Below, in pieces: positions 3,600 through 19,419 of a stretch of 64,000 bases of DNA. The stretch covers positions 248,001 to 312,000 of the forward strand of contig JAQOWU010000003.1 of the NCBI GenBank assembly GCA_030867685.1, read 5' to 3'. This DNA is from Wickerhamiella versatilis. Lineage: Eukaryota. Positions within the stretch are counted from its first letter, which is position 1. The number at the start of each line of letters is the position of its first letter. Under the pieces are notes generated by a model, which saw only the letters and a list, made by a program, of their open reading frames with translations, was not told the origin of the DNA and did no database searches. Made by a program: the position numbers and the translations under genes.

Positions 3600-3866
3600 T
3601 TTGTTACCGAGAATTTTCAAGTATACCGACTGAGGCAAGAGATGAAGTTGTACTACAGTCGTGTTATAGGTTCTAAACTAAATTAATGCAAAATACAAAT
3701 AGTTTTACACCCAAAACTGCCCAGAGTCTTGCCTGCTTTTACACGATCACAGCATGTAAGGGTAAGGTGACCGCTAGCCCCACATCAAGCGGGGTCTATT
3801 CATAGAAAACCAAAAGAGTATATAGTGAAGCTCAGTGCTCACCAGTTTACAACAACAATCACCCAC

Positions 3867-4364
3867 ATGATTTTTGGAAAGACTATCTCTACCTTTGCTG
3901 CACTGGCGACCGTACTTGCCTCTGTTAAAGATGTGAAGCTCGTCACTGAGTCCGATAGCTCAGATGTGAATAATTCGCCGCTGATCGGTCTGCATGAGGG
4001 TGCAGGCTTCAACTTTGTGTTCTTGGCTGACCCATCCTCAGGCAAGTCTGGCGACACCTACAAGTATGACGATGAGACCGGCAACGTGTACAAGCCCACC
4101 TCAGTCAATGGTGACGAAACAGCCAACTACACCTTGTCCTTGGACAACATTAGTGATGTGTTGGTTGTTCAAGAATCAGTTAACGACAACTCTCCTCTAA
4201 CGGTAGAAGGCGGCTACCTAGCCTTCAATGGCTCAACCAGCGCCTTCTTTGCTGGGAAGAATCTGACGTATGACCCATACGGATACAGTCACAGGCAGTA
4301 TGCTCTCGTGGGTACCAGTGGACAGGATACCATTGCCGTGAAGGTTAAGGTGAACGATGCTTAG
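3867..4364 (+). CDS. Small secreted cell-wall protein, Pga30/Pga31/Rhd3-like
   Basis: First ATG is 3867 (the track starts at an upstream GTG); signal peptide; the LHEGAGFNFVFL and DPYGYS motifs are typical of the family; no GPI tail. Confidence 0.7.
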   Translation: MIFGKTISTFAALATVLASVKDVKLVTESDSSDVNNSPLIGLHEGAGFNFVFLADPSSGKSGDTYKYDDETGNVYKPTSVNGDETANYTLSLDNISDVLVVQESVNDNSPLTVEGGYLAFNGSTSAFFAGKNLTYDPYGYSHRQYALVGTSGQDTIAVKVKVNDA

Positions 4365-4425
4365 AGCTAGAAACTTAGAAACGTAAAGATTGCCTACAGT
4401 TAACACAAATTTCATCCAGATTCAA

Positions 4426-5736
4426 TCAGTCAGAATTTTGCCGCACGAACTCCTTCAATTCAAGGGGATTACCATCCATTCTGGACCCGCTACCACTATC
4501 AATGCCCTTTATCTTCTCATTCCACGACCATAGCTCCTTTAAGTCTTTTTCCAAATGGCCCTCGAGTAGGTCAACCACCTTATCACCTATCACAGGCAAA
4601 AATTTCCAAGCATGTGCGGAGCCTCCGGTGACAAGAAGAACATTCTCCAGCCCAGGATGGAAGTCTATGAGAAAGTTCGCCGTTTTCGTCTGAGTCAACC
4701 AGCACATTTTCGTTTTTGAAAACTTGCGTTCCGCTAATGATGGCATGATCTCCTTAAGATTCAACCGAAGTTCCTCCTCGGCACCTTTTGGCATCCAGTC
4801 CCTAGGGTTTGATATTTGGGTCCGGGGATACGAAATGACCTGAGTTCCCACATGCTGCGGATCAGGATGGGGGATTTCCACAGTGTTCAGGTACCCAGGA
4901 GATCTTCGAAGAACCTTCACTTCATGACGCAGTGGAGGGAATATATTCACCCCTGTTGACAGGTTCGTGGTGATCGACATGTTTTTCCATCTATTCTCTT
5001 CATCCTCGGTAACATTGAACCACCCCACCTCTATGCACGTCATATTACATATATTTTCGAGGTTTACCAACTTGGCGCTCCATGCACCAGCAGCAACGAT
5101 GACTAGCTGAGCATTTATTGTTCTGCCACTGGCGAGCTGGACGCCATTCGCCCGATTACTCCCCGGTTCGAAAGTGACATTCTTGACCTCGTCATACAAA
5201 AAGTGAATTTGTGCATAGCGCTTGCACTTTTCGTAGTAGACCCGCATGGCATTGTCAGCCTCAATAAATCCTGCGTCGAAATTTGTATACGCCTGATTCC
5301 AACGAGTATCGGCCTCACTGTGTCCTTCAGTAGTGCCGTGGACATTAGAAAAGACAGAACCTGAACCTTCCACAAGTTTGAAGTTGTCCGTTGCACTTTG
5401 GATATTCTTGAGCTGCGAATTCCAATGCACACCCCATTTGTCCATTTTCCCATCAAATACGAAGGTCATTCCTACCTGGTGAAAGAGGGGAGAAAGCTCT
5501 GCATCATGCCTAATCACTTCTGTTGCTTCATGGGATAGTTTTGCATAAAGCGGATTCGTGTAGTCGAATCTCAAGCACCGGGTTGTATCAACACTGCTAC
5601 CATCTGGCACCGGCGGTTCGAATCTGTCAATTACCGTGATATGAGACTCGGGGCTTCTCTTGGCATATGCTAGGGCCGTTGAGAGACCAAAAATACCGGC
5701 ACCAATAACCACAACCTCCTGAGGTGGGCTCACCAT
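4426..5736 (-). CDS. FAD-dependent amine oxidase (sarcosine / L-pipecolate / fructosyl-amino-acid oxidase family)
   Basis: VVVIGAGIFGLSTA Rossmann motif, SSVDTTR, AAGAWS, KMCWLTQT (covalent-FAD Cys position), GGSAHAWKFLPVIG. Confidence 0.9.
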   Translation of the reverse strand: MVSPPQEVVVIGAGIFGLSTALAYAKRSPESHITVIDRFEPPVPDGSSVDTTRCLRFDYTNPLYAKLSHEATEVIRHDAELSPLFHQVGMTFVFDGKMDKWGVHWNSQLKNIQSATDNFKLVEGSGSVFSNVHGTTEGHSEADTRWNQAYTNFDAGFIEADNAMRVYYEKCKRYAQIHFLYDEVKNVTFEPGSNRANGVQLASGRTINAQLVIVAAGAWSAKLVNLENICNMTCIEVGWFNVTEDEENRWKNMSITTNLSTGVNIFPPLRHEVKVLRRSPGYLNTVEIPHPDPQHVGTQVISYPRTQISNPRDWMPKGAEEELRLNLKEIMPSLAERKFSKTKMCWLTQTKTANFLIDFHPGLENVLLVTGGSAHAWKFLPVIGDKVVDLLEGHLEKDLKELWSWNEKIKGIDSGSGSRMDGNPLELKEFVRQNSD

Positions 5737-5822
5737 CCGCTGGCAAATAAACTAGAAAGATAAATTAGCTAAGCGGTCGAGGAGAAGATAAGCAGATGAT
5801 TAGTCTAGCTGTGAACTATATA

Positions 5823-7298
5823 TTAGCTTAGATTCAATTCGTAGTCCTGAAGTTTTGCCAATGGTTGTTTGGCGTACACACGAGGCCCGCTATCGCCCTC
5901 AGCTATTCCATTAGGGTCCTCAGGGAAATCTTTGGCCTGTCTCCAGCGGAAGAGATTCGTATAGAAGTTACTCCTGCCCTCAATTTTGTCCACCAGAAAT
6001 TTTCCAAGTACAGGCAGCATCTTGAATGCGTGTCCTGAGCCTCCAGTGGACACAAAGACGTTATCTTTTCCAGGAACGAAGTCGTATATATAATCATTGT
6101 TGATTGTGTCAGTATACCAAATGATTTTTGGCTCAAGATGGATCCCAGCATCAACCAAATCAGGGAAAAATAGCTTCAGCCAGCTGATTGCTTGGTCCGT
6201 TATATGACTGGTGAGCCTAACTGCAGGAGGGTCCGAATTGGCAGTCCAAGGAACCGACACAACCCTACCATTCTCCAAAGTGACTGGGTTCGTATATTTT
6301 GTTTGACGAATTATCATTTTCATATAGCCCTCAGGCTCCGCAACCGGAAACATGAACATACCGCCCAAGTAATCCTTCTCCCTTGAATGGCCTGATTTCC
6401 AAGATACAATGGGGAAGTTTCGACTTCGGTATTTCTCAAATAGATCCTTTCTATCCTCAGGGATTTTAAAAACCATGACATTACCTGAAGACGCCTCATT
6501 AATACCCTCTAGTTCTCCTACGAGTGACGTGCTCCACGGCCCTGCCGCCATAACCACTAGGTCCGCAGGGTGCTCCACATTATCCATTGTCACTATTCCG
6601 CCAACCTTGTAGTTGCTCTCAGGCGACTTGAGGAAGCATTTCATTTTACCTTCGGGCTCACCCAGCACAAATTTCACGCCCATGGACTCACACAGATATT
6701 TGGCGAACTGGCAACCACGCGATGCGTAGAGCACACCTGAAGTAGTGTCAAGACATCCATGGATCGGATCAAGCCCGCGTGCTCTCAGATTATCCACAAA
6801 CTTGATCTTCTCACTTAATCCAGCCGGAAAGGCCCGGTGCATGTCCTCTTTACTGTCGAGATCATAGCGCAGCGAGGCTATGCCTGCCTTTTCGAAATTT
6901 TTGCGACTCGATTCCTCTTCCCAGCCTACACAATCGTCGAGCCGCAAGATTGAGCACTGGTCAAAAATTAGCTGGTTGGTGTATTTCTTGGCCTCCTCAG
7001 GTGGTACCAGGGCCAGTTGGCGATTCCAGTCCTGCCAGATTCTCTGCGCCTCCAATGCCAATTCTTGGTAATGCACCTTATCTCCGTATTCGGCGCGAAA
7101 TATCTTGTTCAAATCAGCAGATGCTGTATCTGCACCTTCTAGAAATGTGTAATGATTCTGATTCATATCGAGCCGGTCAAATACGGTCACGTTCCTATAG
7201 CCATTCTTTGCTAGATGGAGAGCATTGGAAAGACCAAATACTCCAGCACCCACGATGATTATCTTGGAGTCTTTGCTATAGCCACGGACATCAGGCAT
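5823..7298 (-). CDS. Second FAD-dependent amine oxidase, sarcosine-oxidase family
   Basis: IIIVGAGVFGLSNA, ASADLNKIFR, AAGPWS, WYTDT, GGSGHAFKMLPVLG. Confidence 0.9.
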   Translation of the reverse strand: MPDVRGYSKDSKIIIVGAGVFGLSNALHLAKNGYRNVTVFDRLDMNQNHYTFLEGADTASADLNKIFRAEYGDKVHYQELALEAQRIWQDWNRQLALVPPEEAKKYTNQLIFDQCSILRLDDCVGWEEESSRKNFEKAGIASLRYDLDSKEDMHRAFPAGLSEKIKFVDNLRARGLDPIHGCLDTTSGVLYASRGCQFAKYLCESMGVKFVLGEPEGKMKCFLKSPESNYKVGGIVTMDNVEHPADLVVMAAGPWSTSLVGELEGINEASSGNVMVFKIPEDRKDLFEKYRSRNFPIVSWKSGHSREKDYLGGMFMFPVAEPEGYMKMIIRQTKYTNPVTLENGRVVSVPWTANSDPPAVRLTSHITDQAISWLKLFFPDLVDAGIHLEPKIIWYTDTINNDYIYDFVPGKDNVFVSTGGSGHAFKMLPVLGKFLVDKIEGRSNFYTNLFRWRQAKDFPEDPNGIAEGDSGPRVYAKQPLAKLQDYELNLS

Positions 7299-7807
7299 TC
7301 TCGGAGTAAGTAAAGGATGTCGGGTTGTGTGTCACTTCTGGAAATGTGACTAATGATACTGGAGTTCCGTAGGACACGTCGACTAGTGAAATTCCTCTGT
7401 TTGACGGGTATAATAGCTTATGACTATAATTCATTTTCAGTATATATGATGAATACTACAAGTTAGCCAGCTTTGGTCATCCCGGCTATCGAAAGCTCCG
7501 GCTACTCGGATTCACCTTCCACATGAAATGAGACATGCTTACACATACAGAGATAAGAACTAAGTATAGTGGCTTACCCCAGGAGTTAACTAGAATACGG
7601 ATCTCGCACCAACATCAGGATAATTACATTAGATATGCAATTTTAAGTGATTAGTTCTGATATCTTCACATGTAAATTGTATGCTGGTCTGCGATCTTGT
7701 AGATGACGAATCAAAGATAAGATTTGGTATCGCACCCTCCTCTGACTGAACATAGCTCTGTAGCTGTTCGACATTTATCGTGCGCCACACCAAAATAAAA
7801 TTAGTAA

Positions 7808-9343
7808 ATGTCTTTTGGCCATTTAGAGGACAAGAAGAATGGGCTGGTGGAGACGAGCAGCTTCACCGTGCCTGAGCACGACACTGGCGAGCTGTCTGAC
7901 CTCAAGGTGGACCATAATGCTGTGGACGAAGGCTTCGACTATGCCGTGGGTACAATGGGGATGGATATTGATCCTGAATCCGAAAAGAAGGTTGTTAGAA
8001 AGATTGATTTTTTCATCCTGCCCCTTATGTGCATACTTATGTCTTGCCAGATATGCAATAAATCATCCAACTCGTATGCAAGCATCATGGGCCTCGAGGA
8101 AGATCTGAACATGTCAGATGAAGCATACTCGTGGGTAGGAAGCTCTTTCTATCTTGGTTACCTATTCTTCGAATTTCCTGCATGTTATCTTCTCCAGCGC
8201 TTTCCTCTCGCAAAGGTCCTAGGCACATCCGTTGTAGTCTGGGGGGTAGTGGTCTGCTGTCATGGTGTATGCCATAGTACACCAACATTTCTACTCTGCA
8301 GGACTTTTCTAGGGGTATTCGAGTCGTTCATGGATCCTGCGTATATGCTTCTGACGTCGCAATGGTATCGGCGGGACGAGCAGTATATTCGAAGCGCATG
8401 TTGGCTTGGCTTGCAAGGATTTGGCACTATGATAGGGTCAGGAATTGCGGCAGGGCTTTACCGACACGTGCACAATGGAGGTTCTTACTCTATGGCCCCA
8501 TGGCGGTTACTCTATGTGATTACAGGCGTCATCACAATTTTCTTTGGCCTCTTATCGTTCTTCCATGTTCCAGATATCCCAGTAAAGGCATGGTTCCTGA
8601 ATGAGCAGGAGAAGAAGATCGCCGTTGAGCGGATCCGGGAAAATAAAACCGGCTTTGGTAACCATACCTTTAAGATGTTTCAGTTGAAAGAAGCCTTGCT
8701 GGATCCAATTACATGGCTTTCCGCTTTTTTCATGATTGGATACGGCATCCCAAATAGCGGCATTGCAAACTTCGGCTCCAAACTTCTTCATGACAGCTTT
8801 GGCTTTGATACCTACAATGCATTGCTGATGAATATGGTAGGTAGCGGTATGGATATTGTGTTCCCGCTAGTGTTTGCCCTCTTCAATTTGTACGTTCTGC
8901 CTAGCCGTCTCATCACCTGCTTCATTATCAACTCGCTCAACTTCATGGCACTCTGCCTCCTCGCGTGGGGTCCCAACATGGGGTCCCAGCTCTCGGGATG
9001 GATCATATCCTTCCTTACAACAGCCTCGTGGGCATGCATGTCCTCCGTCATATCCACTAACGTTGCTGGCAACACAAAGAAGTCTGTTGCAGATTTCCTA
9101 TTCCTAGCAAGCTTCTCCGCAGGTAACATTATCGGGCCTCAAATTCCTCCCACCCAGACTACAGGAAAGGAAGCGATGGTGGGCACTTATGTTCCCTCGC
9201 TTCTTGCACCTGCGATCATGTTTGTAATTTTTTACTACAGGAACAAGAAAAAGGACCGTGAAAACCAAACAAATGATATGGTAAATTCTGAATTTTCTGA
9301 TTTGACAGATAGAACGAATCCTGAGTTTCGCTATGCGTTGTGA
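7808..9343 (+). CDS. MFS transporter, Dal5/allantoate (anion:cation symporter) family
   Basis: ~12 TM; RKIDFFILP, YSWVGSSFYLGY, SQWYRRDEQ, NVAGNTKK, C-terminal FSDLTDRTNPEFRYAL. Confidence 0.92.
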   Translation: MSFGHLEDKKNGLVETSSFTVPEHDTGELSDLKVDHNAVDEGFDYAVGTMGMDIDPESEKKVVRKIDFFILPLMCILMSCQICNKSSNSYASIMGLEEDLNMSDEAYSWVGSSFYLGYLFFEFPACYLLQRFPLAKVLGTSVVVWGVVVCCHGVCHSTPTFLLCRTFLGVFESFMDPAYMLLTSQWYRRDEQYIRSACWLGLQGFGTMIGSGIAAGLYRHVHNGGSYSMAPWRLLYVITGVITIFFGLLSFFHVPDIPVKAWFLNEQEKKIAVERIRENKTGFGNHTFKMFQLKEALLDPITWLSAFFMIGYGIPNSGIANFGSKLLHDSFGFDTYNALLMNMVGSGMDIVFPLVFALFNLYVLPSRLITCFIINSLNFMALCLLAWGPNMGSQLSGWIISFLTTASWACMSSVISTNVAGNTKKSVADFLFLASFSAGNIIGPQIPPTQTTGKEAMVGTYVPSLLAPAIMFVIFYYRNKKKDRENQTNDMVNSEFSDLTDRTNPEFRYAL

Positions 9344-9777
9344 GCTGCATACTCAGGCAATCAAATTATCGCGAGACAGAGATTGGTAATAAAGATTTTT
9401 ATAGGTAATTTAAGTATTAGCATAATTATTCATATAATAGATATAGACATTTTCAAGCTAAGGAAGAAGTAGCGACATTGTAGCTTTTTAGCTTAAGAGA
9501 TACGGATTTCAAAGAGTCGGTCAAAATAGAGTATGGAAATAATGTTATTCATATACTAGAAACCATTCGAACTTTGGAGATGGCCATTCACCCCTCCCAG
9601 AAACAATTAAACATGCACCTGAAAATATACTCTCTTACTCCTATACTGAATCAAGTAGTTTTGGACTTTATTTCTGACCAAAGCACTTAGTATCTGCTGT
9701 TGATACTTTGCAGAGGCAATTTGTCAATTAATTACCAGCTAAAATAATTGTACCATGAGGGACAAAATAGCAAATGT

Positions 9778-11358
9778 TTAATAGGCGTAGCGGAATTCAG
9801 GGTTTTCGAAGTCTGTAAGATCGGCAAATTCGGCATTCTTCATATCTGGGGGAAGTGCTTTACCTAAGCGGTCCCTGCGTCGATTCTCCCACACATTCAA
9901 CAGCTGAATGAGTATAACGCAGAAAAGAAGCACAACGGAACACACAGCCATTGCTAGCTTCCCAGATGTATAATTTGGCGGCCCCCGAAAGCTCTGAGGC
10001 CCGCAGGCGCAACCTGCGGCGTACGCCGTGAGGGTAAGGGCACTTGTAACCACTTTCTTAGTGTGTCCTGCGGTGTTTGATGCGATACTAGAGATCAGGG
10101 CAGTAAATGCAGGGAAAATACTCCAATACCAGATATATGCTCCCGCCAATTGTGAGCCTGCATTGGGTCCCCAGGCTAACAGGCAAAGGGCGAGTACCGA
10201 CACTGCTGCACCAAAAATCCCCCACACCATGCGGCATCTCGTGAAGAAGTATGCTGCCAATACTGCGTTGAATGCACAGACTATGAATTCTGTACCCCCA
10301 GCTGGCAAGGACATTAGTAGAGACATGTTGCCGGTGTTGTCATCCTTTATGATCCCTTGGATTACCAGAGAGAGGAAGCTGGACAGCGCTCCTGATGGAA
10401 ACTCACAGGCAAACATGCCGGCAAAATATACATATGTTCTGAGGTCTTTAAATACTTCAATGAATTGATAAAGCTTAAACTCTGCGTTACCATACCCCTG
10501 TTTGTTGTCGCGAATTCTCTCAATGTGGCCTCTAGCCTCATCCTCAGTTAGGAACCAAGCCTCGCTTGGAGTATCCGGGATGTGAAACCAGAACAATACG
10601 CCAAGAATAAAGCTTATTGCGCCCACGGTGATGAATAGAGCCTTCCATCCGGCTATGTCCAGCGTCCCATCCAATCGTCTCACATTGAAGCCGTAACCTG
10701 CTGCAAGAATTATAATATAGCCTAGCCCATTGAATGAGCACCAGAACAATATTCTGCTGAATTGCTCCTCGCGTTTGTACCATTGAGCTGTTATCAAAGT
10801 GAATGACGGCGTTATAACACTTTCAAGAACACCCAGTATGGTCCGGCATGCCAGATAACCAGCGACATTACGGCACGCTGCAGAACACAGCATCACGACT
10901 CCCCACAGTACAACTGTAATTGACGTGACTTTCGCTATAGGGAATCGCTGAATGACCAAGGACATAGGAAGCTGGAAGATAAGGAAGCCGAGGTAGAAGC
11001 TCGTACCTACCCAGCTGTACTGGCCCGAGGACATATTAAGATCCTTTTTCAAGCCCATAACAGCAGCAGGGCTGTTGGAGAGCTTGTCCATATACTGAGC
11101 GGCATATACGCAAGACAGAAAGAGGGTGACGTAGAGATCAGCTTTCCATCGAAGTCTTTTTTCGGCCTGGGGACTTAACTTCAATGCACCGTGATTCTCC
11201 AACTCAAGAAGCGCAACATCTTTGGTGGTATGCTGTTTCAAATGGTGTTCCAACGGGTCTACCACGTGCCCAACTTCATTGAGTTCTCCAGTTTGGATAT
11301 CATCATCAATTCCTTTCGCCGCTATGACAGGCGATTTTTTAATGTCTTCCAGACTCAT
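9778..11358 (-). CDS. MFS transporter, Dal5/allantoate family (second paralogue)
   Basis: First ATG is 11358 (MSLEDIKK); YSWVGTSFYLG, AQWYKREEQ, NTAGHTKK, FADLTDFENPEFRYAY. Confidence 0.92.
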   Translation of the reverse strand: MSLEDIKKSPVIAAKGIDDDIQTGELNEVGHVVDPLEHHLKQHTTKDVALLELENHGALKLSPQAEKRLRWKADLYVTLFLSCVYAAQYMDKLSNSPAAVMGLKKDLNMSSGQYSWVGTSFYLGFLIFQLPMSLVIQRFPIAKVTSITVVLWGVVMLCSAACRNVAGYLACRTILGVLESVITPSFTLITAQWYKREEQFSRILFWCSFNGLGYIIILAAGYGFNVRRLDGTLDIAGWKALFITVGAISFILGVLFWFHIPDTPSEAWFLTEDEARGHIERIRDNKQGYGNAEFKLYQFIEVFKDLRTYVYFAGMFACEFPSGALSSFLSLVIQGIIKDDNTGNMSLLMSLPAGGTEFIVCAFNAVLAAYFFTRCRMVWGIFGAAVSVLALCLLAWGPNAGSQLAGAYIWYWSIFPAFTALISSIASNTAGHTKKVVTSALTLTAYAAGCACGPQSFRGPPNYTSGKLAMAVCSVVLLFCVILIQLLNVWENRRRDRLGKALPPDMKNAEFADLTDFENPEFRYAY

Positions 11359-11875
11359 CCTGCAGAACGGAACCGTGTCAAGGTGGTAGTGCTTCCCCTT
11401 CCGTAGGCTTCTGATACTTGAATAAGCCACTGTCGCTCCCCCTTTCCCAATCGTCCATTTGAATAGATAAGAGTACGATCTCAGTCATCCAACGGTAAGA
11501 TGGTGACTTCCCAGTCGATTCAGACGCAAGTAGCTGCTGAGGCCATTTACCAACTTTGATACATGTGGTGGTGCAGATATATCGCCTATTCGTCTCAATC
11601 ACCCCCTCGTATCCACTGGAAACCGATCAAGATTGAATTAATTTGTAAGCCCAATCACTGGACCTTATGCTTTAATTGTAGTACTATAGAGCTATCAAAA
11701 GCGGTTGAACAGTAAGAATCTATTTTGACATTCGGTGCAAACGATGAATGTCAGTGGCTTTCCGCTGGCGGTTGGCGGCTCGCGGCTCGCGCTCCTTGGA
11801 TCGACCCTAACCCGTATTGCTTTATATTTGGCCATACCTATTTTTGTTTCTCAAGAGGGGGCTTCATACGAAATC

Positions 11876-12601
11876 ATGTGCACCAAACTCTCAGATTATC
11901 GTCTTCTTTGCTTTGATGTGTATGGAACGCTTATTGACTGGGAAGCTGGTATACTCCAAGCCTTTCAACCAACCCTTGAAAAAAATCACAAAGCAGATGC
12001 TTTTACACGAGAGGAACTGTTGAAGACATACCATGAATTAGAGCGAGAACAACAAACCAAAACACCGGATCTGCCTTACTCCGAACTACTGGAAATAGTC
12101 CATCCTCAATTCGCATCACGGCTGGGTCTTGAACCTCCCTCCCCGGACGAAAGCAAAGCCTTTGGCCAGTCTGTGGGGAGCTGGCCAGCATTTTCAGATA
12201 CTGTGGAGGCATTGCGTCGGTTAGCGAAACATTATAAGCTTGGCGTTCTTTCCAACGTCGATCGCGAATCCTTCGCAAAAACCAATGCTGGAAGCTTGGG
12301 TGGAGTTCCATTTGATCTGGTGGTTACTGCCCAGGATGTTGGGTCTTACAAGCCAAGCCTTCGTAACTTCGACTACATTCTCAATGAAGCGAAGTCCAAG
12401 TTCGATATAGATCCCCAGCAGGTATTGCCAACTGCACAGAGCCAGTTCCACGATCACCAGCCTGCACATAAAAAAGGGCTGAAGTCGTCGTGGATTGTAA
12501 GACCAGGTGCTACAATGGGTAATGTCGAAGATGCAATTTATGACTGGAAATTCGACACTCTCGGTGACATGGCCGATGCGCTCGAGAGAGAAGAATACTA
12601 A
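11876..12601 (+). CDS. HAD-superfamily hydrolase (haloacid dehalogenase type II), most like L-azetidine-2-carboxylate hydrolase
   Basis: Likely start 11876 (MCTKLSDY). FDVYGTLIDWEAGI, QQTKTP, FGQSVGSWPAFSDTVEAL, HYKLGVLSNVDR, TAQDVGSYKP and TAQSQFHDH are collinear with Pseudomonas AZC hydrolase / Aspergillus AzhA-type proteins as I recall them. Confidence 0.85.
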   Translation: MCTKLSDYRLLCFDVYGTLIDWEAGILQAFQPTLEKNHKADAFTREELLKTYHELEREQQTKTPDLPYSELLEIVHPQFASRLGLEPPSPDESKAFGQSVGSWPAFSDTVEALRRLAKHYKLGVLSNVDRESFAKTNAGSLGGVPFDLVVTAQDVGSYKPSLRNFDYILNEAKSKFDIDPQQVLPTAQSQFHDHQPAHKKGLKSSWIVRPGATMGNVEDAIYDWKFDTLGDMADALEREEY

Positions 12602-12662
12602 TTATATATTTAGAAACAAAAATTAGGATTGAATGCTATTAAGTGTGTATATAGTGGTCATA

Positions 12663-14336
12663 TTATGCAAAACTGAGCACCACTCCCTTGTTCTGAGCAA
12701 GCTCGTTCCAGTCAACACAGCGGGTGCCGTCATGATCGAGAGACCACACCTCTTCCAGCAGAGACTTGACTTGGGTTACATTACGCGCACGCACTCGCTT
12801 GGAGAGTCCATCAAGCATCTCACTAACTGACTTGCGTTGCTGTGAGCACCAGGATGCTGCACCAGTGATAAATAACGGGAAGAGAATTGCACCTTCAACT
12901 TGGCTGCAAAGGAGCTGGGGTAAAAGCACATTCAACTCGCGAGCAGACTTACGAATTAGCGGCGATCTTGAGCAGACATGAAAAATACACTGGTATAAAT
13001 GCAATATAGCAACTTTCTGGAACACTTCAAAGAGGACTACCTGAAGGCGCAAATCTGTGATACTAAGATTTGCTAATAGCTCAGTATCTGGACGGCATGC
13101 TAAGATTTTGCGCTCAATTGCCTTAGCACGGGCTGTGATAGGGGACCATTCGCCCACTTCATTGTGTAATTCAAGCTCGTCTTGATGTTTTGCATCCCTT
13201 GCAAGCTCATTAATGGCTACAAGCTCCACAAATAGATCTTCACAACAGGCGCACAATGTATCCGGAAACTTTTCTGTTTCCTGGGAAAAAATGAAGGCGA
13301 AGTCCTGGCTACTGAAGAGCATAGGGCACTCTAGGGAGCTTGAGGCAAGGATCTCGTGATATGCGAAGTTTTTTAGCAACCACCGAACACTTTTACTCTC
13401 TAGAAAGCTGGCGAGTCCACCTTGTTTCTGGATCACTTCAGCGGCCCAGCGCATATACTGACGCCAGTCACTTACATCTCCACAGCATATTTTTCCCGAC
13501 GCCATACAGAGGAGTGACGCCAGTACTTCCTCCTTCAGCATTGGTTCCCTAAGTTCCATGCGTTCAGCCGCTAATGCAAAGTACTTGCGACCAATATCTT
13601 CGTCCCCTCTATGCCATGCAGCCCATCCAATGAGTGCGTAAAGCGTACTGCTACAACGTAAACTTATAGCCAGAAACACTGTTCGAAAGTAATTGACCGG
13701 GGAAACGGTGGCCATGGCACTCTGATAGTCCCTAAAGTACTCAAAAAGTTCGATTCCCTCTAAATCTAAGTTTGGATATGCGCTTTGAAGCATGCAGGTC
13801 GATGGAGTGGGCTCATTGGCCACACCTAGAGGAGGATCCAGGTCTTCATCTCCCAGCAAGTTTGCGATATCTGACGGGTGTGAGCTGTTTATCTCGCCTA
13901 ATATACAGGCTGGAGAAAAAAATGAATCAAAAGGTAATGAAGGCATTACTGGGCTTGATGCAGCAGGAAGCGGTACAGAAAGACTTGGCGCAGAGACCCC
14001 GGATGTCAGCTCTTCTGGATTAGATCTGAGAGAAAAATCTGTGAAGTGAAGAGGCAACTCAAGCTCCCGTTCCCCTCCGGCTGAGTTCCAAACGCTAGTG
14101 TGAAGAACTGATTGATGCCCCCGTCTTGGCGGCCTACCCATATTTCCATGTTTTTGGATGGACGGATCCGAATATTGGCACGTGAGGTTGAGCCGAACGC
14201 ATGCAGCGCATCTAGGTCGTGATTGATCACATCGCTTCTTTCGCCTTTTGCACATCAAGCACCCATACCTAGAGCGTCTGCCAATCCCATGCGGTGTGGT
14301 AGCTACTCTACTAGAAGATAAAGATTCTTCTTCCAT
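12663..14336 (-). CDS. Zn(II)2Cys6 transcription factor with fungal-specific TF C-terminal domain
   Basis: GCLMCKRRKKRCDQSRPRCAACVRLNLTCQY; FAYHEILAS, LFPLFITG, DWNEL in the C-terminal domain. Confidence 0.93.
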   Translation of the reverse strand: MEEESLSSSRVATTPHGIGRRSRYGCLMCKRRKKRCDQSRPRCAACVRLNLTCQYSDPSIQKHGNMGRPPRRGHQSVLHTSVWNSAGGERELELPLHFTDFSLRSNPEELTSGVSAPSLSVPLPAASSPVMPSLPFDSFFSPACILGEINSSHPSDIANLLGDEDLDPPLGVANEPTPSTCMLQSAYPNLDLEGIELFEYFRDYQSAMATVSPVNYFRTVFLAISLRCSSTLYALIGWAAWHRGDEDIGRKYFALAAERMELREPMLKEEVLASLLCMASGKICCGDVSDWRQYMRWAAEVIQKQGGLASFLESKSVRWLLKNFAYHEILASSSLECPMLFSSQDFAFIFSQETEKFPDTLCACCEDLFVELVAINELARDAKHQDELELHNEVGEWSPITARAKAIERKILACRPDTELLANLSITDLRLQVVLFEVFQKVAILHLYQCIFHVCSRSPLIRKSARELNVLLPQLLCSQVEGAILFPLFITGAASWCSQQRKSVSEMLDGLSKRVRARNVTQVKSLLEEVWSLDHDGTRCVDWNELAQNKGVVLSFA

Positions 14337-14383
14337 GAGTCATCATTCCAGAATTGATTACCAATCTGCCGTTGATAACGCAA

Positions 14384-16039
14384 ATGAATGAGGAGTCTGG
14401 GGTGAGTTCAGAAAGAACTCCCCTTATTCAGGAAACATACAATGGCTTGTCAAGACGTAGATTGATCCTGCTGCTTGCTGCACTATATTCTGGATCGCTT
14501 CTAGCTGCAATGGACTCCACGATTGTTGCGACTCTAATGGGACATATAGCCAGCGACCTTGAACAGCTGGATAATATATCATGGGTTGCAACGGGCTACA
14601 CTGTTTCGTACTCTGCATTCCAACCTCTCTATGGTAAACTTTCTGATATCGTGGGTCGAAGGAAGGTATGTGTTTCCTGTACGCTCATATTTGCGTTAGG
14701 GTGTGCCATGTGCGGCATAGCCAGAGGGCTTCCTATGCTTATAAGCGGTCGGTTTGTATCTGGGATTGGTGCTGGAGGAATGCTTTCTATGTCCACGATC
14801 ACCATTTCCGACTACATACCACTACGGAAACGCGGGTTATTCCAGGCGATCTCAACTGTGGCATTTGCCTGTGGATCTGCAGCTGGTGGAATATTAGGGA
14901 GCTGGTTCACTTATTTTGGAGGGTGGAGACTCGCATTTGAAGCTCAAGTACCTTTAATTATGCTTTGTGCCGCTGCTGTTTTCTACACTGTTGTTGATAA
15001 AGAGACAAAAGGTACAAATCCAGATGGTGCCCCTGGAAACAAATTAGGAAGGATAGATTTTGTGGGTTCTTGCTCTTCAATCATGGCGCTCTTGTTGCTT
15101 ATGGTGGGTACCACGACGGGTGGAAATCAATTCTCATGGATCAGCACGCCGATATTTTTATGCTTCATTCTGTCGGCACTGCTATTTGGCTTCTTCATTT
15201 ACTGGGAGTCTTACAGAGCCTCTGAACCCATTATGCCCATGAATATCCTGAGCAATAGAACGGTGTGGACTGCGTGCTTCACGAATTTCCTTGGGTGCGC
15301 AATGACTTTTGCTTTCATATATTATGGTCCCCTATTCCTTCAGGCGCTCTATGGCTATAGTTATACCACTGTATCCTACCGTCTTATAGCAAACTTCGCC
15401 GGACTTGCTGTTGGTTCGCTAAGTTCTGGAATCTACATACGCCATACAGGTCGTTACTGGTGGGCAGGAATATGGAGCTCCATAGCCGGGTTTTTTTCAG
15501 GCCTATTCTTTCTTTTAGGTACATCATGGAGCTCCAGCGGATCAAATATTTGGTACCAGGAAATAGCCTTTTTTCTACAAGGAACAGGGTATTGTGCAAT
15601 GCTCACTACCACTCTCATAGCCCTAATTTCTGCAGTACCTCCTGAATTCCAGGCCATTACCACTGCAGCACAGTATACCTTTAGGGGGGCTGGCTCTTCG
15701 ATTGGTATTTCAGCCGCTGCTGCTGTAATGCAGAACGTACTGAATTGGCGACTGAATACCCTCCTTCCCGACACCAAAGAGGCCGAGGAAGTGATCCGCA
15801 ATGTTTCAAAAAGCATTGAAGCCATACAAAATGTTCCAGATGAATACTTTAATGCAGTCATTAATAGCTACAATGTCACGGAGGTGGCCGTGTTTTCTTT
15901 GATTTTCGCACTAGGTGTTGTCGCCCTTCTGACCTCTTTTTTACAAGGTGAGCATGAGCTCGAGAAAAAACCAGCCTATCGGCACGAAATCGAATCAATC
16001 GCGGAGCAAACTATTGACGAGCCAGCGGTGGAATTTTAG
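14384..16039 (+). CDS. 14-TM MFS (DHA2), Vba-like vacuolar basic amino acid transporter
   Basis: First ATG is 14384; N-terminal SERTPLI dileucine-type sorting motif; QPLYGKLSDIVGRR, GRFVSGIGAGG, SDYIPLRKRG. Confidence 0.88.
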   Translation: MNEESGVSSERTPLIQETYNGLSRRRLILLLAALYSGSLLAAMDSTIVATLMGHIASDLEQLDNISWVATGYTVSYSAFQPLYGKLSDIVGRRKVCVSCTLIFALGCAMCGIARGLPMLISGRFVSGIGAGGMLSMSTITISDYIPLRKRGLFQAISTVAFACGSAAGGILGSWFTYFGGWRLAFEAQVPLIMLCAAAVFYTVVDKETKGTNPDGAPGNKLGRIDFVGSCSSIMALLLLMVGTTTGGNQFSWISTPIFLCFILSALLFGFFIYWESYRASEPIMPMNILSNRTVWTACFTNFLGCAMTFAFIYYGPLFLQALYGYSYTTVSYRLIANFAGLAVGSLSSGIYIRHTGRYWWAGIWSSIAGFFSGLFFLLGTSWSSSGSNIWYQEIAFFLQGTGYCAMLTTTLIALISAVPPEFQAITTAAQYTFRGAGSSIGISAAAAVMQNVLNWRLNTLLPDTKEAEEVIRNVSKSIEAIQNVPDEYFNAVINSYNVTEVAVFSLIFALGVVALLTSFLQGEHELEKKPAYRHEIESIAEQTIDEPAVEF

Positions 16040-16069
16040 GCCTTATAAATCTCTAAAAATTAGCGATAG

Positions 16070-17302
16070 CTATATATCACAGTACACCCACTCCCCATTC
16101 TTAATGATTCCCGAAATTCCATTACTTTGGTCTGTTAGTAGACTAATGTTCTCCAATGGATCACCATCCACAATCAAAATATCGGCATACGCGCCTTCAA
16201 AAATGACTCCTAATAGGCCTTCCATTCCTAGAATTTCAGCGCCGATAAGAGTTGCTTGACAAATAGTATCAAAGTTACCAATAAGCTTGGAGCGTATAGT
16301 AAGCTCCTCGCTCTGGAAAGGATGCAAATCGCCAAGAAGATCGGTGCCAAGACCCATCTTAACGCCCTTCCGGTGGAGAAGCTTCGTGGCCTTCAACCCT
16401 TCGAGGCGTACTGTCTCATTTTTTTCCAGCGACTCCTTTGGCATCCCTGCCTCGGCGCCTTTCCGCTTCATTGCCTCATAGGTTACCAGGGTTGGTACTG
16501 CATATGTCCCATGCTCAAGCATCAAGTCCGCGGTAGGCTCATCTATCAGATTGGCGTGTTCAATTGTGCGCACACCCAGCTTCACAAGCCGCGAGACAGC
16601 CGTGGGTGTGTACGCATGAGCCATAACGTATGTTTGGTGTGATTGCGCCACTTCCACAATCGCCTTGATCTCATCGACAGAATATTGCAGGTTACCAATT
16701 GGGTCTGTCGGAGAAGCAACACCACCAGATGCCATTATTTTAATCTGGGATGCTCCTGCACGCAGTTCTTCCCTTGCTGCCTTTCTTACCTCGTCAACGC
16801 CGTCCACAATCCGACCCAATGCGCCCATACTACGATGGCAATCGCATAGCTCAGGCTTGCTGTTATCAAAACGACCACGGAAGTCAGCATGGCCACCAGT
16901 CTGGGAAAGTGACTTTCCAGATATGAATAAACGTGGTCCTGGAACCAACCCTTCTTCAATAGCCTGGCAAAGCGCGAAGTCCGCACCGCCGGCGTCCCTA
17001 ACAGTGGTGAATCCGCGGCTTAACATTCCTTTTAGGATTGGCAGAGCCCTCAAAACAGCAAGGGTATCAGGCAACTTGCTGTTAGGCCCGAGGCTTGCAT
17101 TGGATGCAATCACATGGACGTGACAGTCAATCATTCCTGGCATCACTGTCCTACCCTGGAGGTCCACATTGACTGCACCTTCCGCAGTGATGAGTTCTTT
17201 TGTTACCTTGGCAATTCTACCCTCATGAATCAAAATTGTATAGAGGCTTTTGTCATCCCGATGGTAGGCATCGACAATCCTTGAGTTTCGAAGCACTATC
17301 AT
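16070..17302 (-). CDS. Metal-dependent amidohydrolase, Xaa-Pro dipeptidase/prolidase-like subfamily (bacterial-type)
   Basis: MPGMIDCHVH (HxH), GFTTVRDAGG, QTGGHADF, QIKIMASGGVASPTDP, AHAY, IEHAN, GTDLLG. Confidence 0.9.
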   Translation of the reverse strand: MIVLRNSRIVDAYHRDDKSLYTILIHEGRIAKVTKELITAEGAVNVDLQGRTVMPGMIDCHVHVIASNASLGPNSKLPDTLAVLRALPILKGMLSRGFTTVRDAGGADFALCQAIEEGLVPGPRLFISGKSLSQTGGHADFRGRFDNSKPELCDCHRSMGALGRIVDGVDEVRKAAREELRAGASQIKIMASGGVASPTDPIGNLQYSVDEIKAIVEVAQSHQTYVMAHAYTPTAVSRLVKLGVRTIEHANLIDEPTADLMLEHGTYAVPTLVTYEAMKRKGAEAGMPKESLEKNETVRLEGLKATKLLHRKGVKMGLGTDLLGDLHPFQSEELTIRSKLIGNFDTICQATLIGAEILGMEGLLGVIFEGAYADILIVDGDPLENISLLTDQSNGISGIIKNGEWVYCDI

Positions 17303-17667
17303 TCGCCGGTGTATTATGTAATGGTCGAGATAAGCATTCTAAAGAGGCACCATGACCCATCACGACGAGTTCTTGCTCGGTGGATCCTTTTACAAAATTT
17401 TTGACTTCTTTAACTTATGGGCCAGCAGTCGTTGACTTATCTCTCGTGTAAAATCTCGGATAGATACGAACATGGGCATTTCCATGCAGAACCTTAACCT
17501 TTAATGAGCTAAAATAAACCCATCAGATAATTCATGGTATCTTTTTACGGTAGTAAACCACTAGCTCAACACATTTTCTAATTTTAGAACAGAACTGTTA
17601 GCGTCTGTATTAGTCATATATCGGCCATTTAACTTATAAGCAGCATTCGATCCGGGCAACCTCTGCA

Positions 17668-18528
17668 ATGTCTACGTCTGCATATACAAATACAAAATAT
17701 GACGCGGCAGGATATCAATTATTCCGTCCTACCTATCCAGATTCATTATATGAGCATTTATCTAGTTATATTGGTTGCACCAAGCCGGCATTAGCTGTGG
17801 ATTTAGGATGCGGTACAGGTCAAGCTACTAAAGCTCTGGCCAGTAAAGTATCAAAGGTCTATGGCGTCGACATCTCGGAAGCTATGATAAAACAGGCGAA
17901 GGAGCAACCTGACTTACCCTCCAACGTTGACTACCTAGTTGGAAATGACACCACCTTGCTGGATACATTTGCCCCTCACAGTGTTGACCTGTTGACTGTG
18001 GCCGAAGCATTCCATTACATGTCCTTTCCGGGCTTTCTTGACTCGGTCCACAGGATCCTCAAGCCTAATGGGGTACTGGCTGTTTGGTCATACTACATGC
18101 CTGCCATCATTTTAAACGAATCTGACACAAAGTCTGGATATACTCAAGCGGGCGACATGATATCTCGGCTCAACTTTGAGACATTATCGCCGTACTGGGA
18201 GAAGAGACAGCATAATCTTGACGACATGTATGCCTCCATCAAGTTCCCTCCAAATCAATTCAAGGATGTGGAAAGGCAGGTGAACGACAACGATAAACTC
18301 CGCCCTGGGCAGCCTTTTGAGCTCGTGCGAAATGACATGAAGTACCGCGATGTTATAAATTTGGTACGGACGTGGTCAAGTTATCACAATTGGAAGCGAG
18401 CCCATCCCGAAGATCCAGATATTGTGGACATCACTGACGAAAAAATCAAGCAAGCCACGGGGCTCCAAGAAGATGATGCGGTTACCGTCAAGTGGAATAC
18501 CGTTTACATATTTGCCCGCGCAATATAA
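17668..18528 (+). CDS. SAM-dependent methyltransferase, Tmt1/Crg1-like
   Basis: YQLFRPTYP, VDLGCGTGQAT, GVDISEAMI, AEAFHY, LKPNGVLAVWSY, RTWSSYHNW. Confidence 0.87.
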   Translation: MSTSAYTNTKYDAAGYQLFRPTYPDSLYEHLSSYIGCTKPALAVDLGCGTGQATKALASKVSKVYGVDISEAMIKQAKEQPDLPSNVDYLVGNDTTLLDTFAPHSVDLLTVAEAFHYMSFPGFLDSVHRILKPNGVLAVWSYYMPAIILNESDTKSGYTQAGDMISRLNFETLSPYWEKRQHNLDDMYASIKFPPNQFKDVERQVNDNDKLRPGQPFELVRNDMKYRDVINLVRTWSSYHNWKRAHPEDPDIVDITDEKIKQATGLQEDDAVTVKWNTVYIFARAI

Positions 18529-18573
18529 GTCTTTGGCTTAGCAACCTACATAAATCTAAGTAAGTATTTTGTT

Positions 18574-19263
18574 TTAAAACATCGCTTCAGCACTATAATT
18601 TACTGGTACCTCGGCGACACTGGCCGTGTTAGGCAAGCTAACCACCGTGCTGACAATATTTGCAATATCCTCGGGCTGAGTTACCTTGTCCAACTGATTT
18701 TCGGCCATTTGATACCGTGCCATATCTGTTGCTACAAAACTAGGACATATCGCGGTTGTGCGAATACCCTTGGAGAATCCCACCTGTCGCAACCCATGTG
18801 CAAGGGCGAGAACTGCGTGCTTCGTCACTGCATAGGAAGAAGAGGCCTGTGATGCCACCCGTTTAGACGACAGCGAGGCTATAACGACGATACGCCCACT
18901 TCCAGTCTTCTCAAGCGAAGGGAAGGCTGCTTTAGCCAGCCGACGGGTCGCCCGTACATTCACCTGCCACATCGTGTCGAACTCCTCCTCAGTGACGTCG
19001 ATGACGGATTTTGGATACATCACCCCGGCATTCGCTATCAAGGCATCGATCCTACCGAACTTCTCCAAAGCATACTCAACCCATTCATCCTCGTTGCCCT
19101 TGAGGGCATCGTAGGGAAACACCTGGACACCTGGGCGCGCTCCCAGCTCCTCTCCACCACTTCTAATGCCTAGAGAGACATTCCAGCCATCAGCCAAGAA
19201 TTTTTCTGCTATGGCTTTTCCGATTCCTCGATTCGCACCGCTAATTAGCGCCACCCGGGTCAT
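18574..19263 (-). CDS. Short-chain dehydrogenase/reductase, bacterial-type
   Basis: SGANRGIG, FGRIDALIANAG, YAVTK (YxxxK), ICPSFVATDM, TQPEDIA. Confidence 0.9.
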   Translation of the reverse strand: MTRVALISGANRGIGKAIAEKFLADGWNVSLGIRSGGEELGARPGVQVFPYDALKGNEDEWVEYALEKFGRIDALIANAGVMYPKSVIDVTEEEFDTMWQVNVRATRRLAKAAFPSLEKTGSGRIVVIASLSSKRVASQASSSYAVTKHAVLALAHGLRQVGFSKGIRTTAICPSFVATDMARYQMAENQLDKVTQPEDIANIVSTVVSLPNTASVAEVPVNYSAEAMF

Positions 19264-19419
19264 GTGGGATAAGACTGATTGATATGAATAATGCGATTTG
19301 CTGCTGCAGAGATTAGATAGTGCATTAGGTGAAACAATCCGCTTGAGAATAAGAGATCCCGGCTCTAAATGTAGTCAGATATGAAACTAAACATGCTATT
19401 TTATTTACGAACTACGGAT

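Follow-up and report, generated by a model that had tools for sequence, protein, structure and literature searches.

The ten genes at positions 4426-19263 of the window, a 64,000-nucleotide stretch of Wickerhamiella versatilis, stand about an even chance of forming a chimeric imino-acid scavenging cluster. On the same footing, the cluster would be a nitrogen-regulated catabolic and detoxification unit for proline-type imino acids, their toxic analogue L-azetidine-2-carboxylate (AZC), and peptide or N-acyl conjugates.

Layout and promoters of the block

The ten ORFs are intronless and run from ATG to stop in the standard code (Table 1), which applies in this host because CTG codons sit at leucine or hydrophobic columns in three of the genes. 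The gene families named in the earlier note agree with the Pfam assignments and the closest solved structures (6iwe, 3djd, 3smv, 3feq/3mkv). The host is a budding yeast known from food fermentations.

Table 1. Genes and promoter-type spacers of the block, in window positions.
Feature	Positions	Strand	Length	Matches and sites
OX1, FAD amine oxidase, sarcosine/pipecolate/fructosyl-amine oxidase family	4426-5736	-	436 aa	Pfam DAO 3e-26
OX2, distantly related second oxidase of the same family	5823-7298	-	491 aa	Pfam DAO 7e-25
Divergent promoter, OX2/permease A	7299-7807			GATAAG at 7552 and 7716
Permease A, MFS, anion:cation symporter (Dal5) family	7808-9343	+	511 aa	Pfam MFS_1 6e-37
Permease B, second Dal5-family MFS	9778-11358	-	526 aa	MFS_1
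Divergent promoter, permease B/HAD gene	11359-11875			GATAAG at 11466; contains 132 bases of a longer ORF 5′ of the likely true start
AzhA-type AZC hydrolase homologue, HAD superfamily	11876-12601	+	726 bp, 241 aa	Pfam HAD_2/Hydrolase
Zn2Cys6 transcription factor	12663-14336	-	557 aa	Zn_clus 1e-8, Fungal_trans_2 7e-55
Head-to-head spacer between start codons, transcription factor/permease C	14337-14383		47 bp	
Permease C, DHA2-type (14-helix drug:H+ antiporter/Vba-like) MFS	14384-16039	+	551 aa	MFS_1 5e-43
Metal-dependent amidohydrolase, related to the prolidases/N-acyl-proline hydrolases Sgx9260b/c	16070-17302	-	410 aa	Pfam Amidohydro_1
Divergent promoter, amidohydrolase/methyltransferase	17303-17667			GATAAG at 17329, CTTATC at 17436
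Tmt1-like SAM methyltransferase	17668-18528	+	286 aa	Methyltransf_11 2e-20
Classical short-chain dehydrogenase (SDR)	18574-19263	-	229 aa	adh_short 1.5e-35

The tight packing claimed for these genes was borne out. Six of the 11 gaps are shorter than 100 bp. Within the block the gaps have a median of 86 bp, whereas the 20 gaps elsewhere in the window have one of 488 bp (one-sided Mann-Whitney p 0.003), and the coding share is 86 %, compared with 69 % in the flanks. The block is no assembly chimera, since it is collinear on one 114-kb contig in a relative that is approximately 4 % diverged. In relative X9, contigs break off at 14338 and restart at 14361, in the spacer between the transcription factor and permease C, and 1-bp indels within OX1 and permease C may be decay or assembly error.

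GATAAG sites, counted on both strands (GATAAG/CTTATC), were likewise present in the promoters as described. There are seven in the 1,680 bp of promoter-type spacers of the block (4.2 per kb) and 11 in the 13,981 bp of other promoter-type spacers in the window (0.79 per kb), an approximately five-fold difference in density (Poisson p 4e-4). The SDR promoter has a GATAAG at 19268. Compaction and GATA-site enrichment are consistent with a nitrogen-regulated unit.

The best surviving alternative, possible although the less probable reading, is a plastic nitrogen-scavenging island, in which genes useful singly would lie side by side because the region accepts new and foreign genes, under general nitrogen catabolite control alone and with no common pathway or regulator. 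The flanks contain three OPT transporters, two S10 carboxypeptidases, an M20 peptidase, an alpha-galactosidase, another Zn2Cys6 gene, and SDRs; because so many unrelated genes for hydrolases and nitrogen scavenging surround the block, the clustering perhaps reflects a plastic genome region and no pathway. GATAAG is also present in the OPT and carboxypeptidase promoters, and a search for a Zn2Cys6-factor motif common to the block promoters found none, with no 8-mer in at least three of the six, which also favours an island. However, the block is far more compact than these flanks, and its promoters exceed the others of the window in GATAAG density.

The AZC-hydrolase-like gene and the bacterial-type amidohydrolase

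The HAD gene was first listed as 11744-12601 on the forward strand, however its true start is most likely Met45 (11876), which makes the protein 241 aa, equal in length to the homologue group and to Aspergillus nidulans AzhA. It aligns end-to-end with the AZC hydrolase of Pseudomonas (PDB 3smv/8ywo; 6e-60, residues 4-236 against 2-234), and five of five AZC-pocket residues are kept (Asp12, Tyr14, Trp20, Tyr64, and Asn122, as listed in an excerpt of bioRxiv 10.64898/2026.09.25.754441). By sequence, it is an orthologue-grade relative of AZC hydrolase with candidate activity. Identity is 69-74 % to proteins of Aspergillus, Penicillium, Colletotrichum, and Fusarium, and the gene is probably foreign to the host; a relative's genome has a second copy, approximately 87 % identical, at another place. 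In the excerpted text of PMC8016842, the family is reported to be missing from budding yeasts, and AzhA to be needed for AZC detoxification and use in A. nidulans and sufficient in S. cerevisiae.

The amidohydrolase keeps all of the metal-ligand positions (HxH, K, H, H, and D) and closely matches solved prolidases (3feq, 2.5e-136; 3mkv, 3e-132), relatives that hydrolyse Xaa-Pro dipeptides and N-acetyl- and N-propionyl-L-proline (PMC11511702, in excerpt). It is probably of bacterial origin, being 64-68 % identical to Burkholderiales enzymes (Caballeronia/Paraburkholderia) and nested inside a Burkholderiales clade (SH-aLRT 99); its GC3 of 47 % is like that of the host. Among 61 bacterial loci with a relative of at least 60 % identity, a 4-hydroxyproline epimerase gene is present in 57, directly upstream on the same strand in 48, and FAD D-amino-acid-dehydrogenase-like, DapA-like, and GntR genes are each present in 56. 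In the donor bacteria, the amidohydrolase belongs to a 4-hydroxyproline operon.

A different, improbable reading of the block is xenobiotic or mycotoxin detoxification. Halogenated acids or toxic amides, and not imino acids, would then be the targets of a haloacid-dehalogenase-type hydrolase and an amidohydrolase of the ochratoxinase kind, working with an efflux pump, a methyltransferase, and a reductase. The HAD protein does match haloacid dehalogenase type II (TIGR01428, 2.8e-32) and PDB entries titled (S)-2-haloacid dehalogenase, ochratoxinase (4c5y, 3e-38) is in the family of the amidohydrolase, and permease C resembles DHA2 drug exporters. The dehalogenase match, however, scores 112.3 bits, below the equivalog cut-off of 125.4, while the AZC pocket is complete; the amidohydrolase is far nearer to the prolidases, its donor lineage is located in hydroxyproline operons, and GATA-site enrichment points to nitrogen control, not to a stress response.

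The HAD and amidohydrolase genes have different probable foreign origins and lie 3.5 kb apart, as an island would allow, but they share one chemical theme and co-occur in unrelated contigs. On one bacterial contig (L097), a HAD-like gene directly adjoins an amidohydrolase-like gene of the same strand, and genes for hydantoinase/oxoprolinase and a TRAP transporter lie next to them; such genes also recur together elsewhere: they are 6-8 kb apart at most on a fungal-like metagenome contig (L084/L096), and approximately 9 kb apart in Paraburkholderia fungorum (L060). HAD homologues are present in one of 78 bacterial amidohydrolase loci, and an amidohydrolase relative in only three of 80 metagenome HAD loci (45 with at least 5 kb of flank), from two contigs. 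The whole ten-gene arrangement was found only in near-identical relatives, which again favours an island. The combination of oxidase, Dal5, HAD, and transcription factor genes put forward in the earlier note was found in no other lineage: homologues of the oxidases, permeases, and factor were near the HAD homologue in none of seven fungal-like loci (within 10 kb, E 1e-3), and not one of the 78 amidohydrolase loci from bacteria brings several block genes together.

The oxidase pair, the permeases, and the remaining genes

The nearest solved structure to OX1 is fructosyl peptide oxidase 6iwe (1e-39). OX1 retains Cys345 of the CW motif (Cys in 29 of 30 aligned rows), has no SKL-type signal at its C-terminus, and has its nearest named relatives in budding yeasts (Ogataea, 53 %; Kuraishia, Pichia, Wickerhamomyces, and Debaryomyces). 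OX2 aligns with OX1 along only part of its own length, at 32 % identity, matches PDB 3djd (1e-22), and has Ile in place of the conserved Cys, with Ile or Leu there in five of 22 rows, OX2 itself counted. Both score far under the curated cut-offs of the N-methyltryptophan oxidase and monomeric sarcosine oxidase models. Fructosyl-amine/peptide oxidases and sarcosine oxidase are among their closest PDB structures, and sequence similarity places the two in the MSOX/fructosyl-amine-oxidase family, which oxidizes secondary amines.

In Candida arabinofermentans, the homologues are neighbours, with successive accession numbers on a single contig of 701,640 bp (ODV85603.1 and ODV85604.1, the latter the best named relative of OX2 at 64 %), and in two Neofusicoccum species an OX1-like and an OX2-like protein are a single 912-aa model, either fused or merged. 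Judged by these comparisons, OX1 and OX2 are an old pair conserved across classes of Ascomycota, which argues against an island. The OX1 homologue in D. hansenii (DEHA2F00396), presumably near a chromosome end as we read its systematic name, would support one.

It is very improbable that nicotianamine or Amadori products are imported, with the oxidases cutting N-alkyl bonds and the hydrolase opening the freed AZC, as the earlier note had suggested, for although nicotianamine includes an azetidine-2-carboxylate unit and the oxidases are nearest to solved fructosyl-amine/peptide oxidases, their E-values indicate just family-level similarity, the block encodes nothing that would handle sugars or keto-amines, the amidohydrolase would be left without a role, the donor contexts give no pointer to such substrates, and nothing specific points to these or to saccharopine.

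Permeases A and B are 37 % identical over their full length. TIGR00893 (2.A.1.14) is the best model for both (2e-66 for permease A) and TIGR00711 (DHA2, 4e-38) for permease C, all under the curated cut-offs, in keeping with the Dal5-type and Vba-like labels first given to them. The Zn2Cys6 factor, encoded midway along the block, is a candidate regulator of the pathway. The methyltransferase matches trans-aconitate 3-methyltransferase 3g5t over its full length (2e-27), and the SDR has generic PDB matches only; both are part of the compact block, with no visible link to the imino-acid theme. The imino- and secondary-amine theme proposed around the AZC-hydrolase-like gene is supported by the HAD gene, amidohydrolase, and oxidases.

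Proposed pathway and comparison with known systems

As an imino-acid scavenging cluster, the block would have been put together from parts of three origins. The two Dal5-family permeases may take up dipeptides, N-acyl amino acids, or similar anionic sources of nitrogen, from which the amidohydrolase would free the imino acid by cleaving Xaa-Pro/Xaa-Hyp dipeptides or N-acyl-imino acids. The AzhA-type hydrolase would open the four-membered AZC ring to 2-hydroxy-4-aminobutyrate, removing the toxin and passing its nitrogen to GABA-type catabolism. C-N oxidation of secondary amines (proline, pipecolate, and sarcosine-like N-alkyl amino acids) by OX1 and OX2 would give imines and H2O2, and permease C could export or sequester toxic analogues. 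The Zn2Cys6 factor would mediate substrate induction, with GATA factors limiting expression to poor-nitrogen conditions; the methyltransferase and SDR may be passengers.

Expansion of PIPOX (sarcosine/L-pipecolate oxidase) in Brettanomyces has been proposed to serve proline use in fermentations (PMC7052964, in excerpt). Both cases involve this oxidase family in broadly related fermentation yeasts, but here there is one conserved heterologous pair, OX1 and the Cys-less OX2, linked to other imino-acid genes, and no multi-copy expansion.

In size, lack of introns, and pocket residues, the HAD gene resembles the A. nidulans AzhA/NgnA and Pseudomonas sp. A2C AC hydrolase systems, and the same product, 2-hydroxy-4-aminobutyrate, would be expected. 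It differs in its host, as budding yeasts are reported to be without the family (PMC8016842, in excerpt), and in its setting, a block that has no Mpr1/NgnA-type acetyltransferase and in which it lies amid permeases, a transcription factor, oxidases, and a prolidase; the excerpted text of PMC8016842 makes no mention of a gene cluster around azhA.

The amidohydrolase shares ortholog-grade similarity, metal-ligand positions, and clade with the Sgx9260b/c prolidases (cog1228, MEROPS M38) of Paraburkholderia/Burkholderia. In contrast to their operon, the yeast gene is without the hydroxyproline epimerase, D-hydroxyproline dehydrogenase-like, DapA-like deaminase, and GntR partners; its neighbours are now permeases of eukaryotic type, the Zn2Cys6 factor gene, and oxidases of the MSOX family. 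The GC3 of the gene has moved to that of the host.

The DAL cluster of S. cerevisiae, the prn proline cluster of A. nidulans, and the nitrate cluster of Ogataea each combine one or more permeases, catabolic enzymes, and a Zn2Cys6 regulator with GATA-site promoters. The present block is alike in its packed permeases, catabolic enzymes, Zn2Cys6 gene, and GATA sites, and differs in its enzyme set, of which at least one member is probably of bacterial origin.

Organization and promoters of the ten-gene block

The earlier note had described ten tightly packed genes at 4426-19263, and this was confirmed. All ten are open reading frames (ORFs) running from ATG to stop with no signs of introns, and the family labels given to them agree with Pfam in every case. 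Three of the genes have CTG codons that fall in leucine or hydrophobic columns of the homologs, therefore the standard genetic code applies. The block is 86 % coding, versus 69 % in the remaining window, and its median spacer is 86 bp, versus 488 bp in the rest of the window (P=0.003). Six of the spacers are shorter than 100 bp, including the 47 bp head-to-head gap between the regulator and permease C. The genes are thereby physically clustered beyond the local norm, with a Zn2Cys6/Fungal_trans_2 regulator embedded among them.

Features of the block and its surroundings (window positions)
Feature	Position	Strand	Class or remark
Small ORF	3867-4364	+	Weak DUF7907 match; signal-peptide-like start
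OX1	4426-5736	-	DAO-type flavoprotein
OX2	5823-7298	-	DAO-type flavoprotein
Permease A	7808-9343	+	MFS permease
Permease B	9778-11358	-	MFS permease
HAD gene	11876-12601	+	HAD hydrolase
Regulator	12663-14336	-	Zn2Cys6 plus fungal transcription factor domain
Permease C	14384-16039	+	MFS permease, DHA2-type
Amidohydrolase	16070-17302	-	Amidohydro_1 enzyme
Methyltransferase	17668-18528	+	Class-I methyltransferase, Tmt1-like
SDR	18574-19263	-	Short-chain dehydrogenase
Three OPT genes	28793-42711	-	Oligopeptide transporters, 909, 916 and 932 aa
Listed with the OPT genes	26127-28400	+	
Listed with the OPT genes	2-694	-	
Listed with the OPT genes (second S10 ORF)	58402-59274	+	S10 profile positions 131-420 only
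ORF ahead of second S10 ORF	57737-58249	+	170 aa, no Pfam match

The arrangement is real, since the window is collinear over 3000-22900 with a 114 kb contig from a relative at about 4 % divergence. Only in relatives that close was the block seen in full, and the sequencing runs that match the stretch are labelled as food fermentation, food and sediment metagenomes. No direct repeats of at least 40 bp are present within positions 1-26000, there are no tRNA genes in the window, and the motif GATAGCCCACT, seen at loose contig ends of relatives, is not present in the block.

GATAAG sites had been noticed in the block promoters, and these are enriched five-fold: the block's promoter-type spacers, 1,680 bp in total, contain seven GATAAG/CTTATC sites, against 11 in the 13,981 bp of the window's other promoter-type spacers (P=4e-4). 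As for a motif specific to the regulator, no 8- or 9-mer is common to three or more of the six block promoters, and CGG-N-CCG occurs once in each of two. In relatives, parts of the spacers (7359-7481, 9743-9777 and 17544-17652) give way to dissimilar sequence that is about as long or longer; the block promoters evolve faster than the block genes.

In sequencing run X9, which is only guessed to be RNA, contigs span all ten genes at depths of 33-90 and are broken at two divergent promoters (7342/7710 and 14338/14361), a weak hint of expression. Between the divergent start codons of the regulator and permease C there are 47 bp (14337-14383); with one X9 contig ending at 14338 and the next starting at 14361, the leaders would be very short. 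By far the highest X9 depth, 177-485, is over the small ORF ahead of OX1. X9 contigs also have single-base indels relative to the window at 4850 and 5208 (OX1) and at 15568 (permease C), and the protein clusters include members of 428 aa (OX1) and of 417 and 146 aa (permease C). These may be due to gene decay in some relatives or to assembly error.

Around the block is a peptide-scavenging neighbourhood, made up of the three large OPT genes in tandem orientation, two S10 serine carboxypeptidase genes and an M20 peptidase. The second carboxypeptidase, which is incomplete against its profile and preceded by an ORF without a Pfam match, may be split or frameshifted, or may contain an intron.

The two hydrolases and their origins

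Based on the 241 aa members of its protein cluster and the lengths of its homologs, the HAD protein most likely starts at Met45, at position 11876. The AZC-hydrolase-like gene around which the earlier note had built the block is homologous over its full length to a characterized enzyme, the Pseudomonas L-azetidine-2-carboxylate (AZC) hydrolase (3smv/8ywo; 6.4e-60), with residues 4-236 aligned end to end against 2-234. The nucleophile Asp12 and the pocket residues Tyr14, Trp20, Tyr64 and Asn122 are all identical in the alignment (five out of five), the pocket being as listed in bioRxiv 10.64898/2026.09.25.754441. The product is a putative AZC hydrolase, predicted to open the ring of L-AZC. As a type II L-2-haloacid dehalogenase (TIGR01428), the protein scores 112.3 bits, under the equivalog cut-off of 125.4.

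Among the best 120 of 5,384 HAD matches, those that carry an organism name all come from filamentous ascomycetes (64-74 % identity), and only two proteins, both without an organism name, are closer (87 and 81 %). A quick maximum-likelihood tree of 41 rows unites the three yeast-type sequences in one clade (SH-aLRT 99), which sits within Eurotiales rows (SH-aLRT 90-92). It is likely from this placement that the gene was transferred from a filamentous fungus. A yeast clade outside all filamentous fungi is not rejected by the AU test (P=0.47), and ancient retention with widespread loss elsewhere is possible. Co-transfer of neighbouring genes was discounted, there being no permease, regulator or oxidase homolog within 10 kb in seven fungal-like HAD loci.

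A second, diverged copy elsewhere in the genomes of relatives is indicated by two further runs (X18 and X10), where a separate short contig aligns to the body of the HAD gene alone (11869-12591), at about 87 % identity, and continues into unrelated sequence at both ends. The annotation of two Aspergillus homologs, P0038 (400 aa) and P0049 (389 aa), shows a fusion with an aldehyde-dehydrogenase domain (PF00171), a hint that the AzhA-type gene of some Aspergilli has an aldehyde dehydrogenase gene as its neighbour.

The amidohydrolase is close to the solved prolidases 3feq/3n2c (2.5e-136) and 3mkv (3.2e-132). Against both 3feq and 3mkv, the motifs CHVH, QIKIMASGG, MAHAY, TIEH and GTDL are conserved; in this superfamily they carry the binuclear-metal ligands (HxH, carboxylated Lys, His, His and Asp). 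By sequence closeness and clade placement, it belongs with the cog1228 prolidases/N-acyl-proline amidohydrolases (Sgx9260b/c, MEROPS M38). According to a review, the solved relatives hydrolyse Xaa-Pro dipeptides and N-acetyl- and N-propionyl-L-proline (PMC11511702). The Caulobacter-type Xaa-Pro dipeptidases (NF051886) are a different subfamily, for which the protein scores 249.6 bits against a cut-off of 500.

All named rows among the best 120 amidohydrolase matches are betaproteobacteria, for the most part Caballeronia, Paraburkholderia and Burkholderia, and align along their full length with 60-67 % identity; only three proteins without an organism name are closer (98, 82 and 79 %). In a quick tree of 81 rows, the yeast clade (100) falls inside a Burkholderiales clade of 63 rows (SH-aLRT 99). 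The GC3 of the gene, 47 %, is that of the host, and the gene is embedded in long yeast contigs. Judging from this nesting, the host-like GC3 and the surrounding yeast sequence, the gene is an old bacterium-to-yeast transfer and not contamination.

In donor-type loci, those with a relative of at least 60 % identity, a 4-hydroxyproline epimerase gene is present in 57 out of 61, and in 48 of the 61 it is immediately upstream of the amidohydrolase on the same strand. FAD D-amino-acid-dehydrogenase-like, DapA-like and GntR genes are each present in 56 of these loci. Only one of 17 more distant loci has the epimerase. In the donors, therefore, the amidohydrolase gene is part of a 4-hydroxyproline catabolic operon. 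The native substrates are likely to be dipeptides or N-acyl conjugates, from which the enzyme would release proline or hydroxyproline. Transfer of operon partners along with it was discounted, since no other window protein is consistently homologous in the 78 bacterial loci. Taken together, both hydrolases are probably foreign and of different origins.

The oxidase pair

OX1 and OX2, about 32 % identical to one another, had been placed in the sarcosine/pipecolate/fructosyl-amine oxidase family. This is borne out by a DAO-type FAD domain and matches to solved members of 1e-39 for OX1 and 1e-22 for OX2. Neither reaches the curated cut-offs for N-methyltryptophan oxidase (257) or soxA_mon (479.65), scoring 101.5 and 94.5 bits (OX1) and 75 and 79.1 bits (OX2), respectively. 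The cysteine of the CW motif, presumably the flavin attachment site of this family, is present in OX1 (29 of 30 rows); the position is Ile or Leu in OX2 and its four closest aligned relatives (5 of 22 rows). No SKL-like tripeptide for peroxisomal targeting is present at the C-terminus of either protein.

The nearest named relatives of OX1 (49-53 %) are from the budding yeasts Ogataea, Kuraishia, Pichia, Wickerhamomyces, Candida arabinofermentans and Debaryomyces. Together with the dense, intronless genes and the standard reading of CTG, these relatives put the host in the Saccharomycotina, probably close to the Pichiales. For OX2, the closest relative with a species name is ODV85604.1 (64 %), from C. 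arabinofermentans, and the OX1 homolog of that species, ODV85603.1, is on the same 701,640 bp contig; the accessions are consecutive, so the two genes adjoin. In Neofusicoccum parvum and N. ribis, a single model of 912 aa (P0405 and P0554) resembles OX1 in its first half (41 %) and OX2 in its second (36 %), and a Phyllosticta model (P0253, 752 aa) has the halves in the same order. Because the pair adjoins in C. arabinofermentans and is joined in these models, it is, from such comparisons, an old functional module, whether the models are truly fused or merged in annotation. Likewise, P0419 of Penicillium digitatum (867 aa), as P0405 and P0253, has two DAO domains or is a merged model, with an OX1-like or other DAO-family half and an OX2-like half. 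P0412 (717 aa) has a single DAO stretch at 261-672 and no Pfam match in its first 260 residues. One report describes an expansion of the oxidase family in Brettanomyces, where it is proposed to serve proline use (PMC7052964).

Possible pathway or scavenging island, and known systems

The HAD and amidohydrolase genes are 3.5 kb apart, around the regulator and a transporter. Relatives of the two were also found together in two metagenome contigs and one genome locus: adjacent on one strand in a bacterial contig (L097), beside hydantoinase/oxoprolinase and TRAP-transporter genes, within 6-8 kb in a fungal-like contig, and about 9 kb apart in Paraburkholderia. Such co-location is rare, seen in 3 out of 80 HAD loci, 45 of which have at least 5 kb of flank, and in 1 out of 78 amidohydrolase loci.

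Contig L097 (1-9406) is operon-like, with genes for TRAP DctP/DctM and hydantoinase/oxoprolinase A and B, together with two HAD hydrolases and an amidohydrolase. Identity to the yeast counterparts is 45 % for one of the HAD hydrolases and 41.5 % for the amidohydrolase. Possibly this is a bacterial locus for cyclic amino-acid derivatives.

There is about an even chance that the block is a nitrogen-regulated cluster that both scavenges and detoxifies imino acids of the proline type, AZC and conjugates of these, in which a native oxidase pair would work with two acquired hydrolases. A pathway is favoured because two probably foreign enzymes of imino-acid chemistry cluster around a regulator and transporter, and because their relatives co-locate in unrelated DNA. 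Neither the Tmt1-related methyltransferase nor the generic SDR fits this theme.

The main rival, a plastic island of scavenging genes that share no pathway, is possible but less likely. Against a pathway are flanks full of other scavenging genes, the rarity of the co-location, the seven fungal-like HAD loci without oxidase, permease or regulator homologs, and promoters that share no regulator-specific motif; the joint occurrence of HAD and amidohydrolase relatives in unrelated bacterial and fungal-like contigs argues against the island. The version involving nicotianamine and Amadori products found no specific support.

Tentatively, and with the odds somewhat against it, the imino-acid cluster could be a working catabolic pathway that a food-fermentation yeast has built from three sources under one Zn2Cys6 factor and GATA control. 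These would be a native, ancient two-oxidase module, which would be one fused protein in some filamentous fungi, a prolidase captured from a hydroxyproline operon of Burkholderiales, and an AZC hydrolase of the filamentous-fungal kind. The yeast would thereby resist, and feed on, the plant toxin AZC and proline/hydroxyproline peptides. If so, this would be the first AZC-catabolic locus in the Saccharomycotina, and one of the rare instances in which selection has brought independently acquired foreign genes together according to function.

At this locus, a yeast lineage has an AZC hydrolase-type gene beside a bacterial prolidase and imino-acid-type oxidases. Should the genes act together, the locus would clearly exemplify how a eukaryotic metabolic cluster is built from independently acquired genes, and would explain how a fermentation yeast copes with plant substrates that are proline-rich, nitrogen-poor or contain AZC. 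The conserved oxidase pair, joined in some models, is an uncharacterized two-enzyme module of biochemical interest in itself. AZC is present in beet. It is also reported in Liliaceae and Agavaceae (PMC8016842).

Literature searches turned up neither a yeast cluster of this composition nor anything pertinent on such a bacterial-to-yeast transfer; the phylogeny tables in the supplement to PMC8016842 may include homologs from yeasts. That paper states that azhA-type homologs are missing from the Saccharomycotina and gives absence of the hydrolase as the reason why budding yeasts are unable to use AZC. In Aspergillus nidulans, AzhA is required for AZC detoxification and use, and it is sufficient in Saccharomyces cerevisiae (PMC8016842). 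The HAD protein is 69-74 % identical to Aspergillus homologs other than AzhA. The A. nidulans gene (AN12472) is intronless, 726 bp long and encodes 241 aa, and the yeast HAD gene is of the same size.
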